Below are positions 24 through 26,362 of a stretch of 64,000 nt of DNA, one piece after another; within the stretch, counting starts at the first letter, position 1, and each line of letters starts with the position of its first letter. The DNA is from Escherichia coli (GTDB lineage Bacteria; Pseudomonadota; Gammaproteobacteria; Enterobacterales; Enterobacteriaceae), in assembly GCF_044324875.1 (NCBI RefSeq), contig NZ_CP172186.1; one strand, 5' to 3'. Below the pieces are notes generated by a model. The model ran no database searches. It worked only from the letters and a program-made list of their open reading frames with translations, and was not told where the DNA came from. A program made the position numbers and the translations under genes.

Positions 24-914
24 TCAGGCTGCCAGATCATCGTTTCCGATGGAAGCATAATAAGCTTTTTCTGCTTCTGCCGGTGGGATATGGCCCAGCC
101 TTTCCAGCAATCGTCGATTGTTATACCAGTCCACCCACGTGAGTGTGGCCAGCTCCACTTCTGTCCGGTTTTTCCAGCTCTTACGGTGTATTACCTCCGC
201 TTTGTAAAGGCCATTGATGCTCTCCGCCATCGCGTTGTCATACGAGTCACCAGTACTTCCTGTTGATGCCAGTAATCCGGCTTCCTTAAGCCGCTGTGTG
301 TAGGCCAGCGATACATACTGAGAACCTTTATCACTGTGATGGACTGTGCCGGACGGTCGACGGGCCCATAACGCCTGCTCCAGAGCATCCAGCACGAATG
401 TCGTTTCCATAGACGATGAGACCCGCCACCCCACGATGTATCCGGCAAACACATCAATGATGAACGCCACATAGACGACCCCCTGCCATGTGCTGACGTA
501 AGTAAAATCAGCCACCCACAACTGGTCAGGACGTTCTGCCACAAACTGACGGTTTACGCGGTCGCCTGCGGCAACGGCTTTCCGGCTGACGGTAGTGCGG
601 ACCTTTTTACCCCGGAGAACACCGGCAAGTCCCATAACCGCCATGAGGCGCGCCACTGTACATCTGGCTACCCTGATTCCTTCCCGTAACAACTGACGCC
701 AGACTTTACGCACACCGTATACCTGATGATTCCCATCGTATACGCGCAGTATCTCTTTCTTCAGCCAGTCATCGCGCTGCGCACGGGCACTGCGTTTATA
801 AGGATGATGTCGCTGTTGCTGACAGTGGTAATACGTTGACGGGGCAATATGTAGTTCACTGCATACCGGTCCGACCCCGTACAGCTTACGCAGCTTATCC
901 AGCAGTGGCATCAC
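24..914 (-). CDS. IS3-family transposase OrfB (DDE integrase core)
   Basis: 296-aa ORF, one substitution relative to 25472-26362; HSDKGSQY...YDNAMAES motif. Confidence 0.9.
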
Positions 915-1163
915 TTTTTCCAGAGGCGGTCGAACTCCGCCTTCGCAAAATAAGCGGAAGCCTGGCGAAGGATATCGTTACTGCGGCGCAGTTCACGATT
1001 TTCACGTTCCAGCTCTTTCAGACGCTGACGTTCAGCGGTGGTGAGCCCGCCATCACCGCCTCCGGTATCCCGCTCATGCTGGCGTACCCAGACACGCAGG
1101 GTCTCTGGCGTACAGCCAATCTTTGGAGCAATGGAACAAATTGCCGCCCACTGTGAGTCATAT
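911..1163 (-). pseudogene. 5'-truncated orfA of the IS629-like element
   Basis: Reverse complement matches the 3' two-thirds of orfA 25149-25475; N-terminal coding sequence absent. Confidence 0.7.
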
Positions 1164-6570: not shown

Positions 6571-7669
6571 TGTGATTATCCTCGGTATCTGTGGCTTTCA
6601 GGAACAGGCTGACGGTAGTGGCGTCTTTCAGGATGCCGGACGGCAGGTGCCAGCCGGTATCGGATAACACCCATGGGGTACCGCCAAAACCGAACTGGCG
6701 GAAAGCCTGGTTATTGACATCGATGGCAGCACGAGCAGCGGTCAGACACTTTTCATCCGGTGCAGCCGGTGCATCGCCGGTGGGTGCCATACCACCGTCT
6801 GCGGAATACAGCTGATGCCATCCGGTCGCCCGTTTTTGTGCGTCCGGTTCACACAGCAGTGGCGCAGTCCGGTTTGTGCTGGCCTCTCCGCCGATTACGG
6901 AGACCGGATAAATCACCACGCTGAATTCCCGGGCCAGTTGCTTAAGCGCGGGCTCCAGAAGACGGCAGTTGATGCATGCGGGGTCAAGGAAGGCGTAGAG
7001 TGTGCGTTCATGACCAGTGGAGAGATTAATGGTGAACATACCCCGGTCCGCGTTGCGTTTAAGTACAGTGGCCAGATTACGGCGGGCTTCAGCGACCAGA
7101 GTATTTTTGTCTGCTGTTATCGCCGGGGTAGCGGATGTCTCCTGCATTTCCTGTGATGCCGGGTGAACGATTTCATTTTTCGTCTCTGACGGGGCTACTG
7201 ACCGGACAATTTCCTTGTCGATGTGTAATGGTGCTGTTTCTGTTACGGATTCTGTGACAGGTACCCTGAGAGGGGAATCGCTGTCCGGTTTCAGTAAAAT
7301 ATATCCGGCTGTTACCGCTGTCAGAAGTGCCAGCACTAATCCTGCACCGTATATCAGCCCTCTCATGAAGCTGGTTTTCCGGGCAGGAAGTTCTGCATAT
7401 GCCGCGCTCAGACAGCTGTCAATCGCGGAGAGCATTCTGCCGATGTGATGTCCGGGACGTTCAGTATCAACGGTATCAACAAGCAGTGTTTCGGTTATTT
7501 CACGAAAAGGGGTGCTGAAGGACAGGTGCATCAGCCTGTTATTACGGTTAATCAGTGCGCCCAGTTCTGTAACCGGCAGGATGGCAATAACCTCCTGACC
7601 ACCGTCAGGGTACAGGGCGGTCAGGGACAGGTGTTTATTGTTCAGTGTTGCAGTGTAGCGGATGGTCAT
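6551..7669 (-). CDS. trbB: TrbB, DsbC-like thiol:disulfide interchange protein
   Basis: 372 aa, TM/signal anchor, thioredoxin-type CINC (CxxC) motif; coupled between trbA and trbC. Confidence 0.65.
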   Translation of the reverse strand: MTIRYTATLNNKHLSLTALYPDGGQEVIAILPVTELGALINRNNRLMHLSFSTPFREITETLLVDTVDTERPGHHIGRMLSAIDSCLSAAYAELPARKTSFMRGLIYGAGLVLALLTAVTAGYILLKPDSDSPLRVPVTESVTETAPLHIDKEIVRSVAPSETKNEIVHPASQEMQETSATPAITADKNTLVAEARRNLATVLKRNADRGMFTINLSTGHERTLYAFLDPACINCRLLEPALKQLAREFSVVIYPVSVIGGEASTNRTAPLLCEPDAQKRATGWHQLYSADGGMAPTGDAPAAPDEKCLTAARAAIDVNNQAFRQFGFGGTPWVLSDTGWHLPSGILKDATTVSLFLKATDTEDNHNEPASR

Positions 7670-8982
7670 TGTGCTTTTTCCTTGTCGGCGGGATGCTGTT
7701 TTTCGGTGGTTTCGGTGGTTTCGGTGGTTTCGGTGGTTTCGGTGGTTTCGGTGGTTTCGGTGGTTTCACCAGTGTCAGTGTCTTCGTCGTTATCATGGCG
7801 GCGGGGTATCACGTCATCCGTGAGTGACCAGCGGGTCCTGATCTGACGTTTACGATCGCGATCTGGCTGAGGTTCGTCCCATATCAGGCCCAGCCCCAGC
7901 ATGTCCCGTCGAAGCCCTTCAATGGCCTCTTCCACACAGGGTTCCGGGCAGGGGAGGCCGAGACGGCTGGCTTCATTTTCTGCCCGGGCAACGGCCACCA
8001 CGCCGGCCCCTTCGATGAAGCCTTTTGTGGTGTTTGCCCGGTGAAGGGCATAGAAGAGCGTCCGGTCAACGCCCTTGAGCCACAGCCAGTTCGGAGGCGT
8101 CAGGCGCAAATCATGTGCGTAAAGCCAGACCAGACCGCTGCGAACGTAACGGTGCTGCCTGAGCCACTTTTGTGCGCCTTCTGTTTTGATGACCCGGATA
8201 AAGGCGTTTCTGGCCAGTGAATACACCGGCGTGCTGAAACGCCCCTGGTCCCGTTTACTTTTGAGCCTGCAGGAGAGATTGAGGTTGTTCATCAGGGCTA
8301 CCGCTGCTTTCCGGTCACCGAGGAAGAACTGCAGGCCAAAGATGGCAAAGAGCGCTTTTTCATGTGGGGCCATGTCTTTCCAGCTGGTCAGTGGTTGCCC
8401 CAGTTGCGCCATGAAGCACTGGCGTGTGGACGCAACATCGAGCTGCATGTTGCGGATAAGGTTGTTCTGCTCCACAAAGGCTTCGGGGGTTAGTGCGACA
8501 CGGCGCTCGGGACGTTTTTGTCCGTGGAAGAGTCTGTTGTTGTCTCCGTCAGCCAGAACGGGGGCGATCGCCGGTGACAGAGCTGAAAAAATATGGGGCA
8601 GTGTGTGGATATTCAGTGGCCTGCGGGTAAAACGGGGCTGGGCCGGATGGTGAAACCACATCCACAGAAAGCCGAATGTCATGGGAAGCAGAATCAGCCA
8701 GAGGATCCCCACTGTCCGGGACATAACATCCAGCCACTGGCTGAAAGTGATGGTTGCCGCGTTGTTAGCAGTGATGGCCAGCAGGTTGTAACGGGGGACG
8801 GCAAAGTTGTGAAAGGGCCCCCAGTCAATCATGCCCCACAGTGTGTGCAGGATCAGGCAGGAGGCGAAGACGATTTCAGGTAAAAAGCGCCAGATGATAA
8901 TCGCAAAGAGCAGGCATATGGCACCGACGATATACCATATAGCCATTGGATCTTCGGCGGCAGACGTCTGTTGGTAAGACAC
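7666..8982 (-). CDS. trbA: TrbA/DotM(IcmP)-like inner-membrane protein with C-terminal (TET)n acidic repeat
   Basis: 438 aa, several TM segments; position and size fit IncI1 TrbA. Confidence 0.65.
   Translation of the reverse strand: MSYQQTSAAEDPMAIWYIVGAICLLFAIIIWRFLPEIVFASCLILHTLWGMIDWGPFHNFAVPRYNLLAITANNAATITFSQWLDVMSRTVGILWLILLPMTFGFLWMWFHHPAQPRFTRRPLNIHTLPHIFSALSPAIAPVLADGDNNRLFHGQKRPERRVALTPEAFVEQNNLIRNMQLDVASTRQCFMAQLGQPLTSWKDMAPHEKALFAIFGLQFFLGDRKAAVALMNNLNLSCRLKSKRDQGRFSTPVYSLARNAFIRVIKTEGAQKWLRQHRYVRSGLVWLYAHDLRLTPPNWLWLKGVDRTLFYALHRANTTKGFIEGAGVVAVARAENEASRLGLPCPEPCVEEAIEGLRRDMLGLGLIWDEPQPDRDRKRQIRTRWSLTDDVIPRRHDNDEDTDTGETTETTETTETTETTETTETTEKQHPADKEKAQ
7701..7766. repeat. Tandem 9-bp repeat TTTCGGTGG x7 (coding, minus strand ACCGAAACC = Thr-Glu-Thr)
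   Basis: Seven perfect head-to-tail copies inside the 3' end of trbA. Confidence 0.9.
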
Positions 8983-9292
8983 GGGGATTCCTCCATAGAT
9001 GAATGGATAAATTTCGGGATTAAGTCGGGTGGCATGAATGCGAATCAGCGCCGGTAATAACCGGACAGGAATGAATTCAACAGGACATTTTTACAGAGAA
9101 GAGCGAACGGCAGAAGGTGGTGGGAGACAGGTACAAAAAAACCGACTGGTGAGGCCGGTTTTTTTGCGATTCCGGGGTGGAGTTGGTGGCTCTGACCGGA
9201 GGAAGTCTCTTTTCAGCTAACAATGAGAGAGCTGTTGTGACAGGCAATGTAAGAGTAAGCAGCAGTGATTTCCTCCATTGACGGAGAAACGG

Positions 9293-9376
9293 ATGATTAA
9301 CCTGTTAATCATCGTTCTCAGGGCGGTTGTTGCTGTGGCTAACGCAGTGATAGCTCTCCGGGAACTGGTTGACTGA
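9293..9376 (+). CDS. 27-codon hydrophobic peptide MINLLIIVLRAVVAVANAVIALRELVD (candidate type I toxin-like small membrane peptide)
   Basis: ATG 7 nt downstream of GGAGA; single predicted TM helix; hairpin 9399-9428 just downstream; below ORF-track length cutoff. Confidence 0.3.
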   Translation: MINLLIIVLRAVVAVANAVIALRELVD

Positions 9377-9785
9377 TAATCCCGGAAACGTACTTAAGGG
9401 CAGAGGGTCACCTCCTTCTGCCCTTTAACAAAATATGCTCAGGTTAAAAATCGAAAACCTTCCTGCACTTCCTGTGCCTGTTCCCGTGAGCCAAACATGA
9501 GCCGGCTTTTACCCGGAACTCCCCAGGAAATATATTCTACATCCACCCACCATTTTCCGTATTCTTCATACGGTCCGGATATCACTTTAGTGACAAATGC
9601 ATCAATCAGGTTCATTTTTACACCTTTCTGTTATTCTGCTTATTACGACCAGCAGACAGCAAATATTAAAAATAACGCGGCGGTAATGCGTATTCCGCTC
9701 TATTCGATCACGGATTGGCATCGAAGTCCGATCAGCGATTCGCATCCATTCGATCAACCGGGAACTTAACTTTTTCTACCGCTTT

Positions 9786-10565
9786 TTAACGCGTTTTTTC
9801 GCTGCTTTCCACTACCGGGGGATTTTTCCTCAGTGACTCTCCCTGAAGGACCACTCGGTGTGAGTTATGTACCAGTCTGTCCAGGATGGCATCTGCTGTT
9901 GTTGGGTTCTCCATCAGACCATGCCATTTATCTACCGGGAACTGGCTTACCACTATCGTGCTGCTTTGTCCGTAACGATCCTCTATGAGCTCCAGAAGGT
10001 CATTACACTGGGCGTTACTTAACTGTTCCAGCCCCAGATCGTCCAGGATTAGAACCTGTATTTTTTGCAACTGTTTCAGATATTTCAGCCAGCTGCCATC
10101 AACACGTCCCTGAGCCAGTTGTTCCAGTAATCGCCCGGTTCTACAGTACCGGACGCTGTGTTTCTGTCGACATGCCTGTTCGCCCAGCGCATTGGCTATC
10201 CAGCTCTTGCCACATCCTGTCGGACCGGTTATCAGCAGGTTTTTCCTGTGGGTTATGTAGTGGCCGTTCAGCAGTTCTCTCATCTGTTCAGCCCGCAGAC
10301 CTCTTGAGGCCGGATAGCGCAGCCCTTCCGGTGTTGCCTGGTATTTCAGGCCGGCATTTTTTCTCAACCGTGCCACACGGCTGTTTTCCCTGCTCAGAAG
10401 CTCGTCATCAACCAGCAGCGTCAGCCTTTCCTCGAACGACAGTTCGTCGTAGGTCTGAGGCGTTTCCCGCTGCCGTATCAGGCTCCCGGCCATCGCCGGG
10501 AGTTTCAGTTGGGTCAGTTTGTTTAACAGGTTATCACTCATACTGTTGTTCCTTCTGTCAGTGGT
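9786..10565 (-). CDS. istB: IS21-family helper ATPase IstB
   Basis: Walker A GPTGCGKSW, DnaC-like AAA+; start taken at MSDNLLNKL inside the 332-aa ORF. Confidence 0.9.
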   Translation of the reverse strand, partial: TTDRRNNSMSDNLLNKLTQLKLPAMAGSLIRQRETPQTYDELSFEERLTLLVDDELLSRENSRVARLRKNAGLKYQATPEGLRYPASRGLRAEQMRELLNGHYITHRKNLLITGPTGCGKSWIANALGEQACRQKHSVRYCRTGRLLEQLAQGRVDGSWLKYLKQLQKIQVLILDDLGLEQLSNAQCNDLLELIEDRYGQSSTIVVSQFPVDKWHGLMENPTTADAILDRLVHNSHRVVLQGESLRKNPPVVESSEKTR

Positions 10566-12204
10566 AGTAGCCCGGACCACGCAGGTTTTCATGCTCTGAA
10601 GCATATGCCGGATGTTGTTCGCCCTGGCGGGATAATGGAAGCTCCAGGTTCTCCCGATGGTGACGCAGCAGATTGTCGATAAAGCGTCTGTCAGGGGCGT
10701 TATAGTGCAGGGCAACGTAACAGGCCTTTTCCAGCCGTTCCGGGCCGTATTTTTTCTGAAGTGCCAGCAGCCCCAGAACTGCACGATAAGCCAGTTCCGG
10801 ATGGGGTTTTGCCTTCAGCATGGATTCAACCACCCGGCCTGTGGACGGGCCCGTACGTTTTCCCTGCTCGATCAGGCGTTCCGGTGTCCATGTCCCGTGC
10901 TGCCGGTGGCGCTCTGGCATGTGAAGCGGATTGGTTGTGTGTTTATATTCATGTGTGCTGCGCGGATGTTGCGCCACACACTGCCCCTTGTGCCAGAGCT
11001 GTACCACCGACTGCCCCGCCTTCAGTGACAGACGCTGACCGACCAGTTCGTGTGGAACGGAGTACCAGTGACGGGCATATTCAACGTGGTAGTCAGGGCC
11101 AACCTTCACAGCTTTGTATTCCGTGTATTCATAAGGTGCCAGAGGCAGCGGAGAGAGTGCTGGCGCATCCAGTATGCGGAAGCGTTCTGCACGGGTTTGA
11201 TTGCCGTACCCCTTCATTGGCCGGTTATTCATGTCTGTCAGTAACTCCCTAAGGCGCGCATTCAGCGCCCTGAGCGTGTGGAAGGTTTCATTACGGATGC
11301 GGGCAAGAAGCCATCGTTCAACGATGAGGACGCCGTTTTCTGCTTTTGGTTTATCTTTAGGTTTGCGTGGTCGGGCCGGGATGATAACCGTGCCATAGTG
11401 CTCAGCCAGTGCCTGATAACTGTCGTTGATGACAGGCTCATATCGATCGGCCTTTTTCACTGCGCTTCTGAGGTTATCGGGGATGAGCAGCTTCGGTACG
11501 CCGCCCAGGAAGGTCAGGCAACGGCTGTGGGCATTTAACCATGACATCATGTCCTGACCTTCGCACGCTTCAACGTAGGTATAGTTGGACGCCCCCATTA
11601 CGGCCACGAAGATTGCCACGCGGCGTATCTCACCGGTGTCCGGATTAATAACAGGAACCGTAGGACCACAGAAGTCGATAAAAAGCTTTTCGCCGGCACG
11701 ATGCTCCTGGCGCATGGAGAGACGTCGCGTTTTTTTCCACTCCCGGTAGCAACGGCAGAAGTGCGAGTATCCCATCGCTTTGTTACCCGCCTGTGCCTTG
11801 TATTCCATCCACAACAGTTGCCGCGTCACACCTGGTTTTCTCATTTCCGTATCGAAGTACAACATGTCAGGCATTACAAGCTCTGATGCAAAGGTGTCTT
11901 TGGGCGGAAAAATGAGTTTCTCCAGCGTGTCATGGGATATATCAGCAGGTAATGGCCATGACAGAGAAGAGGCTTTGAAGCGGGCAAGAACCTCAAAAAC
12001 GGTTGAGGCGCTGATGTGTAACGTCAGTCCGATACAACGGTTAGTCAGCTTCTTGTCGAACTTGAGCTGAAGGATCTTAAAACAGGTTTCCATAGTGCTC
12101 CTGGATTTTCTCTTTCTGGACATTGACGTCTCCACTGGTTTAAACACGGCAATGGAGACTGTGGTGAAAAGAGTTAATTCCCGGAGTGACTGGCAGGATG
12201 CCAA
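10558..12204 (-). CDS. istA: IS21-family transposase IstA (true start probably internal, METCFKIL at ~12093)
   Basis: N-terminal HTH, LSWPLPA motif, DDE core; 2-nt spacing to istB. Confidence 0.9.
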   Translation of the reverse strand: MASCQSLRELTLFTTVSIAVFKPVETSMSRKRKSRSTMETCFKILQLKFDKKLTNRCIGLTLHISASTVFEVLARFKASSLSWPLPADISHDTLEKLIFPPKDTFASELVMPDMLYFDTEMRKPGVTRQLLWMEYKAQAGNKAMGYSHFCRCYREWKKTRRLSMRQEHRAGEKLFIDFCGPTVPVINPDTGEIRRVAIFVAVMGASNYTYVEACEGQDMMSWLNAHSRCLTFLGGVPKLLIPDNLRSAVKKADRYEPVINDSYQALAEHYGTVIIPARPRKPKDKPKAENGVLIVERWLLARIRNETFHTLRALNARLRELLTDMNNRPMKGYGNQTRAERFRILDAPALSPLPLAPYEYTEYKAVKVGPDYHVEYARHWYSVPHELVGQRLSLKAGQSVVQLWHKGQCVAQHPRSTHEYKHTTNPLHMPERHRQHGTWTPERLIEQGKRTGPSTGRVVESMLKAKPHPELAYRAVLGLLALQKKYGPERLEKACYVALHYNAPDRRFIDNLLRHHRENLELPLSRQGEQHPAYASEHENLRGPGYYH

Positions 12205-12408
12205 TCAATGATCGGAAGCATGCCAAATCGTGATCGATTGTGATGCCAAACTGTGATCGGAGATGGATGCCAAATCATGATCGATTCGAATGCCAAACTG
12301 CGATCGATTCAGATGCCATTTTGCAGGTAAAAATGGCAATTTTTTTCATGCTGTATTTTTGCCATTTATTTTCTTTGAAATGGTTTTTTTCTTCATATCA
12401 GCAAATAA

Positions 12409-14647: not shown

Positions 14648-14901
14648 CGGTGGGGTACAAACGCAGAAATTTTGTTGTCATTACATCATCAGTTTTAGCC
14701 TGCAGAGACGCTGAAAAATCAGCGTTTTCAGACCCTGTTCAGGTTAGTGAATATTCTTGCCTGGCCTTTCGGCAATATCAATCCCCTGATGTGTGCACAC
14801 GTAGTCACTTTCCGGCTTTATTTCTGTCCCTGACACAAAATACGTGGTGGCATGAAAAGGATTGTGGCGGACAGGAAAACGATTAGAATAGCGGCGGGCG
14901 C

Positions 14902-15195
14902 TTGAGGCTGTATGCCGAAAGCGTTTTGTGGACGGCATGTAGCAGAAAGCCCCAGGCGATTTTTTTATCAATCAACCCAGGGCCCACTGTAATGCCTAGA
15001 CAACATTATAGTAGCCCGATGACGGCCGAAAGGCAATGGAGGGGCTGCGATGCCACAACGAACGTTTTTAATGATGTTAATCGTCGTCTGTGTGACGATA
15101 CTGTGTTTTGTCTGGATGGTGAGGGATTCGCTTTGCGGATTTCGTATCGAGCAGGGAAATACGGTGCTTGTGGCAACGTTAGCCTACGAAGTTAA
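14902..15195 (+). CDS. Possible pndC (mok-like) overlapping reading frame of the pnd locus
   Basis: ORF in alternative frame overlapping the Hok-family toxin gene, as in hok/mok loci; real start uncertain. Confidence 0.35.
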   Translation: MRLYAESVLWTACSRKPQAIFLSINPGPTVMPRQHYSSPMTAERQWRGCDATTNVFNDVNRRLCDDTVFCLDGEGFALRISYRAGKYGACGNVSLRS

Positions 15196-25148: not shown

Positions 25149-25475
25149 ATGACTAAAAATACTCGTTTTTCCCCCGAAGTCCGTCAGAGGGCGATTCGTA
25201 TGGTTCTGGAAAGTCAGGGCGAATATGACTCACAGTGGGCGGCAATTTGTTCCATTGCCCCAAAGATTGGCTGTACACCGGAGACTCTGCGTGTCTGGGT
25301 ACGCCAGCATGAGCGGGATACCGGAGGCGGTGATGGCGGGCTCACCACCGCTGAACGTCAGCGTCTGAAAGAGCTGGAACGTGAAAATCGTGAACTGCGC
25401 CGCAGTAACGATATCCTTCGCCAGGCTTCCGCTTATTTTGCGAAGGCGGAGTTCGACCGCCTCTGGAAAAAGTGA
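25149..25475 (+). CDS. IS3-family transposase OrfA (HTH)
   Basis: 108 aa [19 protein letters not shown]..., leucine-zipper region; overlaps orfB start. Confidence 0.9.
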
Positions 25476-26362
25476 TGCCACTGCTGGATAAGCTGCGTAA
25501 GCTGTACGGGGTCGGACCGGTATGCAGTGAACTACATATTGCCCCGTCAACGTATTACCACTGTCAGCAACAGCGACATCATCCTGATAAACGCAGTGCC
25601 CGTGCGCAGCGCGATGACTGGCTGAAGAAAGAGATACTGCGCGTATACGATGGGAATCATCAGGTATACGGTGTGCGTAAAGTCTGGCGTCAGTTGTTAC
25701 GGGAAGGAATCAGGGTAGCCAGATGTACAGTGGCGCGCCTCATGGCGGTTATGGGACTTGCCGGTGTTCTCCGGGGTAAAAAGGTCCGCACTACCGTCAG
25801 CCGGAAAGCCGTTGCCGCAGGCGACCGCGTAAACCGTCAGTTTGTGGCAGAACGTCCTGACCAGTTGTGGGTGGCTGATTTTACTTACGTCAGCACATGG
25901 CAGGGGGTCGTCTATGTGGCGTTCATCATTGATGTGTTTGCCGGATACATCGTGGGGTGGCGGGTCTCATCGTCTATGGAAACGACATTCGTGCTGGATG
26001 CTCTGGAGCAGGCGTTATGGGCCCGTCGACCGTCCGGCACAGTCCATCACAGTGATAAAGGTTCTCAGTATGTATCGCTGGCCTACACACAGCGGCTTAA
26101 GGAAGCCGGATTACTGGCATCAACAGGAAGTACTGGTGACTCGTATGACAACGCGATGGCGGAGAGCATCAATGGCCTTTACAAAGCGGAGGTAATACAC
26201 CGTAAGAGCTGGAAAAACCGGACAGAAGTGGAGCTGGCCACACTCACGTGGGTGGACTGGTATAACAATCGACGATTGCTGGAAAGGCTGGGCCATATCC
26301 CACCGGCAGAAGCAGAAAAAGCTTATTATGCTTCCATCGGAAACGATGATCTGGCAGCCTGA
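25472..26362 (+). CDS. IS3-family transposase OrfB (DDE)
   Basis: 296 aa, rve domain; made as OrfAB fusion by -1 frameshift in this family. Confidence 0.9.

Follow-up and report, generated by a model that had tools for sequence, protein, structure and literature searches.

The stretch of Escherichia coli DNA considered here (hereafter the window; 64,000 nucleotides of contig NZ_CP172186.1) carries on its plus strand, at 9293-9376, an open reading frame (ORF) for a hydrophobic peptide of 27 residues. A sequence-only reading had noted the resemblance of this peptide to type I toxins such as DinQ, had taken it to be unannotated and had allowed that it might be a chance ORF. The locus raises the question of whether it represents a working toxin gene, the remains of one, or neither.

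A DqlB peptide and an adjoining agrB gene

A length of 27 codons is uninformative on its own, because the surrounding 4 kb contains 66 ORFs of at least 20 aa; it is homology, to a protein family (NF041473), to an RNA family (RF02891) and to other plasmids, that lifts this ORF above chance. Its coordinates and translation, MINLLIIVLRAVVAVANAVIALRELVD, are exactly those previously given. The product is a small, single-helix hydrophobic peptide that scores 47.2 bits (E=1.5e-12) in a search with the curated NCBIfam profile NF041473, ‘DinQ-like type I toxin DqlB’, for which the cut-off is 35, the match of the 27-aa peptide spanning profile positions 1-26 of 31. The toxin_DinQ model, NF041472, gives the same peptide 13.9 bits, below its cut-off of 30. 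More than 2300 plasmid records match the locus, and an identical copy in the RefSeq plasmid NZ_CP100501.1 (IncK2/Z) is labelled dqlB, with protein accession WP_271298668.1. The peptide is thus DqlB, and the locus belongs to a type I toxin-antitoxin system already known from plasmids, DqlB-agrB (DinQ/AgrB family); the DqlB family has been named and functionally characterised, and this exact peptide has been annotated before.

The proposed likeness to DinQ was right at the family level, given the DqlB profile match and the agrB gene that lies beside the ORF. The description as unannotated does not hold, since RefSeq labels the identical locus, the family was named in earlier work (PMC5066626) and an NCBIfam model exists, and the suggestion of a chance ORF is excluded by the NF041473 and RF02891 matches. 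It had also been proposed that a lack of conservation in related plasmids would refute the toxin assignment; thousands of them carry homologues. The elements of the two genes are as follows.

9283-9287, plus strand: Shine-Dalgarno sequence GGAGA, read from the sequence, of which GGAG is invariant across the family alignment
9293-9376, plus strand: dqlB ORF, 27-aa allele (ATG, 27 codons and TGA), assigned by NCBIfam NF041473, RefSeq WP_271298668.1 and alignment to 31-aa alleles
9396-9425, plus strand: dqlB terminator hairpin (arms 9396-9407 and 9414-9425), inverted repeat I2, 12 bp, fold of -22.1 kcal/mol
9133-9220, minus strand: body of an agrB-type antitoxin small RNA (sRNA) with its 5' end at 9220, assigned by Rfam RF02891 AgrB, its fold and alignment to K-12 agrB
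9134-9166, both strands: bidirectional intrinsic terminator, CAAAAAAACCG...CGGTTTTTTTG, from inverted repeat I3, a plus-strand terminator match and the folds of both strands

Some details of the earlier description need adjustment. GGAGA does precede the ATG, at a gap of 5 nt, and the 7 nt reported for it are obtained only when counting from the last G of GGAG. The GC-rich hairpin placed at 9399-9428 is present, with 12 bp, and its true span begins about 3 nt further left. The phrase ‘upstream of trbA’ is apt only in the sense of a divergent orientation, as trbA occupies 7666-8982 on the minus strand and the ORF is not in its leader.

The agrB gene lies directly upstream of the toxin gene, on the opposite strand and with its own terminator. 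The RF02891 match runs from 9220 to 9133 with 51.8 bits (gathering score 40), covers model positions 1-84 of 84 and is the sole such match in the window; searches of all 64 kb by tblastn and with Rfam found no further copy of dqlB or agrB from which a product might act in trans. In the predicted fold of the RNA, the 5' antisense segment is unpaired and is followed by an internal stem-loop and a strong terminator. This terminator is flanked on both sides by A- and T-runs and scores as a plus-strand terminator too. As it would stop plus-strand transcripts besides ending agrB on the minus strand, transcription is unlikely to read through from the direction of trbA. The annotated 5' end of K-12 agrB aligns with position 9220, which places the former agrB promoter to the right of that position, where the window now has dqlB 5'UTR sequence.

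One repeat in place of two

In the dinQ-agrAB locus of E. coli K-12, described by Weel-Sneve et al. (PMC3567139), the primary dinQ mRNA is translationally inert, because pairing of element 1 of the 5'UTR with element 2 leaves elements 3 and 4 free to close the Shine-Dalgarno sequence (Kristiansen et al., PMC5066626). Once the first 44 nt are removed, element 2 pairs with element 3 instead and the Shine-Dalgarno sequence opens, and pairing of agrB with dinQ nt 88-119 (element 2) closes it again and leads to cleavage by RNase III (PMC5066626). Plasmid and chromosomal homologues, with sigma-70 promoters, Shine-Dalgarno sequences and terminators, were named dqlA and dqlB in 2016 (PMC5066626), and the family norm is a pair of non-overlapping, divergent toxin and antitoxin genes, each with a sigma-70 promoter (T1TAdb, PMC8594479; PMC5066626). 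For the DqlB-agrB pair of pOXA-48 (IncL) it was reported in 2025 that the induced toxin is toxic, that agrB rescues and is essential by Tn-seq, and that plasmid loss kills (PMC12365149); that of pOXA-484 (IncX3) was described in the same year as a toxic, agrB-rescued plasmid-addiction module (PMC12317039). An intact locus of this kind produces a stable dqlB mRNA, with a structured 5'UTR of ~200 nt, that encodes a membrane-depolarising peptide of 31 aa and, divergently and from its own promoter, the short-lived sRNA agrB. The first ~33 nt of agrB pair with the same-sequence repeat in the 5'UTR, so that the Shine-Dalgarno hairpin closes and RNase III cleaves; upon plasmid loss agrB decays and the toxin kills the cell.

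The locus in the window was aligned with L002 (NZ_CP074816.1), the intact locus closest to it and sharing its trbA flank, with loci from IncI1 (L003) and IncX3 (L005) plasmids and with the chromosomal dinQ locus of E. coli CCUG 73778 (L004), the K-12 locus (L006) being compared separately, from its sequence. In BLAST searches, related plasmids match the 346-nt locus in two pieces spanning 500-590 bp. Intact plasmid loci possess two direct repeats of ~33 nt, which in L002 are GTTCTGACCGGAGGAAGTCTCTTTTCAACTAAC, the template of the agrB 5' end, and GCTCTGGCCGGAGGAAGTCTCTTTTCAGCTAAC, its target (‘sequence 2’) in the dqlB 5'UTR. These are 234 bp apart in L002, whereas in the window a single hybrid repeat remains and the 234 bp are absent. 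The repeat and the retained mRNA elements that follow it are listed here.

9185-9220, no strand assigned: single hybrid repeat of ~33 nt, from alignment to L002, L003 and L005 and from junction analysis
9221-9292, plus strand: retained distal dqlB 5'UTR (RNAalifold, 8 loci), corresponding to SL4 and elements 3:4 of the dinQ model (PMC5066626)
9231-9238/9259-9266, plus strand: conserved stem in the 5'UTR with compensatory changes (RNAalifold on 8 loci)
9273-9276/9283-9286, plus strand: anti-Shine-Dalgarno/Shine-Dalgarno hairpin, CUCC with GGAG, its pairing invariant across 8 loci
9292-9313, plus strand: start-codon hairpin, GATGATTAAC / GTTAATCATC, inverted repeat I6, 10 nt, 100% complementary

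Junction analysis rests on two diagnostic bases: 9195 matches the agrB copy and 9216 the 5'UTR copy. Agreement with the agrB copy extends from the left as far as 9215, and agreement with the 5'UTR copy from the right down to 9196, so the crossover lies within the 20 identical bases 9196-9215. In this family a stretch of about 30-35 nt, complementary to the agrB 5' end, is expected some 75-110 nt before the toxin start codon. The remaining repeat stands at that distance (73-108 nt before the ATG), but this sequence is at once the agrB 5' end: a single copy is shared where intact loci have two. On the DNA, the agrB 5' end and its target are directly repeated, so that a recombination event joining the two eliminates the intervening sequence; the window copy is a collapsed allele produced by a repeat-mediated deletion of 234 bp.

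On the L002 segment that the window lacks, the minus strand carries the agrB promoter (TTGCGA-17-TATTCT). The dqlB -10 box is there too, as a TATAAT conserved among L002, L003 and L005, and so are a GTTAGC motif in alignment with the +1 mapped for K-12 dinQ, an element-1-like sequence (the locking ‘sequence 1’) and the proximal dqlB 5'UTR. Recombination between the repeats has removed the promoter of agrB together with the -10 box, +1, sequence 1 and proximal 5'UTR of dqlB, and has left the toxin ORF directly behind the bidirectional agrB terminator, without a recognisable promoter and, in its present form, minus four polar-motif residues. The loss of these four codons may have come before or after the 234-bp deletion.

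Elements 2, 3 and 4 of the four-element 5'UTR are present, element 1 and the +1 having been deleted; the start-codon hairpin is kept in 8/8 aligned loci, where one of its pairs varies in a compensatory manner, and changes of this kind also support the terminator in the same alignment. A toxin mRNA from the window would thus still combine a conserved Shine-Dalgarno hairpin with a Rho-independent terminator. The hairpin at 9396-9425 is common to dqlB and a convergent ORF of 58 aa, and on the minus strand it is not followed by a U-tract.

A separate observation concerns a 17-nt inverted repeat, 9106-9122 / 9409-9425 (88% complementary), that links sequence to the left of the agrB terminator with the right arm of the dqlB terminator and exceeds what is expected by chance in 400 nt. 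A 5'-3' lock like that of the hok mRNA was considered and rejected, as 9106-9122 is upstream of the agrB terminator and outside any plausible dqlB transcript. No counterpart was seen by eye in the IncI1 locus L003, and the repeat is treated as unexplained or due to chance.

The peptide has also changed. Relative to the 31-aa DqlB of L002, L008, L003 and L005, an in-frame deletion of 12 nt at the 9356/9357 junction has shortened it to 27 aa, and LELI has been lost from the conserved ALLELIR motif (...AVIALLELIRELID becoming ...AVIALRELVD). In the alignment, the lost residues include the Glu that corresponds to DinQ Glu17, which together with Arg20 and Gln24 forms the proposed polar patch of DinQ. 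E. coli DinQ is itself a toxic peptide of 27 aa, so peptide length alone is no argument against toxicity and, by analogy, the 27-aa DqlB could be toxic if expressed.

Compared with the DqlB-agrB modules of pOXA-48 and pOXA-484, the locus in the window has the same NF041473 peptide, RF02891 RNA, distal 5'UTR elements, Shine-Dalgarno and start-codon hairpins and terminator, but one repeat rather than two, no counterpart of the 234 bp with both promoters, the +1 and sequence 1, and a peptide of 27 rather than 31 aa that lacks LELI of ALLELIR. Its position beside trbA in the I-complex backbone is shared with related IncI1, IncK1 and IncB/O plasmids. In the K-12 dinQ-agrAB locus both the toxin (37% identity over 27 aa) and agrB are homologous to those of the window, and regulation follows the same logic, the Shine-Dalgarno hairpin being closed when the antisense RNA pairs with a site 76-107 nt before the start codon; the K-12 locus differs in having three repeats, a LexA box at the dinQ promoter and a GTG start, where the window has one repeat, no CTG-N10-CAG and ATG. 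The tisB-istR1 and zorO-orzO systems likewise combine a small hydrophobic toxin with a divergent, trans-acting sRNA that pairs in a long 5'UTR, and with activation by 5' processing (PMC5066626), but their peptides belong to different families, and the Rfam match of the agrB terminator (9135-9165, minus strand) to OrzO-P is partial and below threshold, with only 30.8 bits against a gathering score of 60. A similarity of 71-74% between a zor 5'UTR segment and plasmid dinQ-like 5'UTRs was noted in 2024 (PMC11264685).

Promoter signals and the state of the module

In a promoter scan of 8900-9800 the sole site was at 9508, unrelated to the locus, with none of at least 9/12 near it. A relaxed consensus scan of the plus strand from 9167 found nothing upstream of the Shine-Dalgarno sequence even at 7/12, and neither gene has a promoter-like site of at least 8/12 at its start that could serve as its own sigma-70 promoter, although scans of this type overlook promoters that are weak or non-canonical. 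Immediately before the agrB 5' end, the minus strand offers a single site, TTGCCT-16-CATTGT (7/12; 9247 to 9220), whose sequence is also kept in intact loci, for reasons of RNA structure, and which no change in the window improves. Within the dqlB ORF and 3' region, the best minus-strand match is CTGAGA-17-AATCAT (8/12; 9321 to 9293); an RNA begun there would run antisense through the first part of the ORF and the distal 5'UTR. The sequence-only reading had advised a search for the promoter of an antisense small RNA; the antisense gene is there, directly upstream on the opposite strand, and its promoter has been deleted.

LexA control of the window dqlB was rejected, as no LexA-type CTG-N10-CAG occurs in 8983-9440; the K-12 dinQ promoter has CTGTATGATTATCCAG. 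Intact dqlB loci share a CTG-N10-CAG inside the 5'UTR, ~30 nt upstream of the agrB target (L002 1801-1816, L003 1717-1732, L005 1250-1265), which is deleted in the window and is probably the same site as the weak LexA box (HI 11.6) predicted on pTF2 (PMC12211044).

Taken together, we consider it probable that one recombination between the repeats stripped a known DqlB-agrB module of both its promoters, that four codons were lost from it as well, and that what the window now contains is a silent relic without post-segregational killing. Homology, deletion and junction, the lack of consensus promoters and the distribution over plasmid lineages are observed directly, while the absence of expression and the loss of function are inferred from the sequence. 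The copy is unlikely to work as a toxin-antitoxin module because both promoters went with the 234 bp, and the peptide, in addition, is four residues short.

A different reading is that the module is still an active, canonical addiction system, in which dqlB is transcribed from a cryptic promoter and restrained by agrB or another antisense RNA, so that plasmid loss kills. The intact ORF, Shine-Dalgarno sequence, start-codon hairpin and terminator would accord with this, as would a peptide that passes the NF041473 cut-off, the toxicity of the 27-aa DinQ and the proven addiction modules at homologous loci (PMC12365149, PMC12317039). We regard it as unlikely, however: the canonical promoters of both genes and the 5' end of the mRNA were within the deleted 234 bp, a strong terminator stands directly upstream of the ORF region, no promoter-like site is found between 9167 and the Shine-Dalgarno sequence even at 7/12, and the 5' part of the toxin mRNA would wholly overlap agrB in cis, unlike that of any validated family member.

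The agrB side of the locus suggests another possibility. The agrB body and terminator are intact, and the first ~31 nt of the RNA are computed to pair continuously with the dqlB 5'UTR of L002, as well as L002’s own agrB does. The toxin might therefore be silent while an agrB-like RNA neutralises the dqlB mRNAs of related I-complex plasmids resident in the same cell, which would make the locus an orphan antitoxin, or anti-addiction element. Such an RNA could arise from the weak TTGCCT-16-CATTGT site or by read-through of transcripts of the 58-aa ORF, ending at the agrB terminator; the latter source is plausible because 9396-9425 lacks a U-tract on the minus strand, so that these transcripts could run antisense through dqlB to that terminator. 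This proposal too appears improbable, as the true agrB promoter is deleted and the candidate site reaches only 7/12, with a sequence that intact loci conserve for RNA structure and that is unimproved in the window.

The 58-aa ORF (9439-9615, minus strand) converges on dqlB and belongs to no NCBIfam family; IncK2 and IncI1 plasmids have an annotated hypothetical protein of 58 aa at the corresponding place, oriented in the same way. Relative to pLH50-c-A, an IS21-family element of 2.64 kb (9687-12325; IstA and IstB ORFs, NF033546 and NF038214) is inserted 71 nt upstream of this ORF, and the flanking alignments overlap by 5 bp (target-site duplication). The insertion may have separated the ORF from its promoter.

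Distribution of the collapsed allele and its parallel at dinQ

The collapsed allele is present at 100% identity in 53 PLSDB records and at 98.5% in 5 more, all of them single-piece matches, and thus in at least 58 plasmids, whereas the next best PLSDB matches, at 94% identity or less, are two-piece intact loci. The records come mostly from poultry-associated E. coli, and the two for which replicon type was examined are both IncK2/Z. Single-repeat alleles were not seen in other plasmid lineages, occurring only in records ~100% identical to the window, in samples (not a census) of 60 of the more than 5000 PLSDB matches to the full-length IncI1 locus and 40 of 3485 E. coli records. From these sequences, the allele has most likely become fixed in an IncK2 plasmid lineage. 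An assembler could in principle collapse a 33-nt repeat, but such an artefact is rejected by the identical allele of at least 58 complete plasmids that were deposited independently. Although short ORFs are abundant in the region, the significant protein- and RNA-family matches, the thousands of homologues and the compensatory stem changes, together with these identical or near-identical plasmids, leave practically no room for an explanation by chance or by faulty assembly.

A similar collapse has occurred on the chromosome. K-12 (L006, 345-1240) has three copies of the repeat, in agrB, agrA and the dinQ 5'UTR, and in CCUG 73778 (L004, 770-960) the body of agrB is fused directly to the distal dinQ 5'UTR, with agrA, the LexA box and the +1 missing. 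The distal dinQ segment was found in 5422 of 5426 complete E. coli genomes and the dinQ promoter/+1 segment in only 4610 of the 5426, being absent from ~812 of the 5422 that carry dinQ; the collapsed junction itself is present at 99% identity or more in 713 of the 5426, including Nissle 1917. Match spans fall into classes of 191, ~390 and ~620 nt, equivalent to one, two and three repeat copies. An analogous collapse of dinQ-agrAB is thus present in ~13-15% of complete E. coli genomes, and the locus in the window resembles the one-repeat alleles of CCUG 73778 and Nissle 1917. Earlier descriptions of collapsed alleles were not found in the literature searched on dqlB and dinQ-agrB, of which the coverage was incomplete.

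Because the chromosomal locus has collapsed in parallel in many E. coli, the repeat structure that underlies antisense control appears also to make the DinQ/AgrB family prone to clean self-deletion. The window locus shows no decay beyond the two deletions, its ORF, Shine-Dalgarno sequence, start-codon hairpin and terminator being intact and the allele identical in dozens of plasmids. Its persistence in a successful plasmid lineage, together with the analogous chromosomal allele, could mean that the single-repeat form is of some use. It is conceivable, if doubtful, that this form is a recurrent, built-in off-switch of DinQ/AgrB loci, whereby one recombination drops both promoters and disarms the toxin safely, perhaps leaving a protective orphan agrB-like RNA, and that it has spread in IncK2 plasmids and arisen independently at chromosomal dinQ. 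Were this so, the orphan RNA may shield its carrier from DqlB addiction imposed by competing I-complex plasmids.

What these data add to a known family, the promoter-less, single-repeat allele in the window and in the IncK2 lineage, is of modest specialist interest and bears on annotation. The labels DqlB and DinQ are assigned from the peptide alone and thus fall also on loci without both promoters; RefSeq still names the one-repeat chromosomal alleles ‘damage-inducible type I toxin DinQ’. DqlB-agrB has been reported in 83.2% of IncB/O/K/Z and 67.4% of IncI1 plasmids (PMC12365149), and peptide-only labelling means that surveys of dqlB ORFs (83% for IncB/O/K/Z) may count more modules as functional than there are.

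For its stability, the poultry-associated IncK2 lineage probably depends on other functions, for example a hok/sok module. A full-length sok antitoxin RNA is found at 14896-15052 on the plus strand (Rfam RF01794, 125.6 bits), ~5.5 kb away from the dqlB remnant; it belongs to a type I addiction module, hok/sok (pnd-type), and the matching Hok/Gef CDS is annotated in pLH50-c-A. As a plasmid-borne type I addiction module of I-complex plasmids, hok/sok (pnd) is comparable to the dqlB locus, but the two are not homologous, hok/sok having an unrelated toxin, a cis-overlapping antisense RNA and translational coupling through mok.

Two further features of the surrounding DNA may be mentioned. The ALIL pseudoknot RF01497 occurs twice in inverted orientation, at 840-956 (minus strand) and 25430-25546 (plus strand), with 116.2 bits in both cases, which suggests that two copies of one IS element with a frameshift signal bracket ~24.5 kb that include the trb-dqlB region. 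The 3' end of trbA contains 7.4 perfect tandem copies of a 9-nt unit (TTTCGGTGG, 7701-7767), which encode a (TET)n tract, TETTETTET..., just before the overlap with a downstream gene of the DsbC family.
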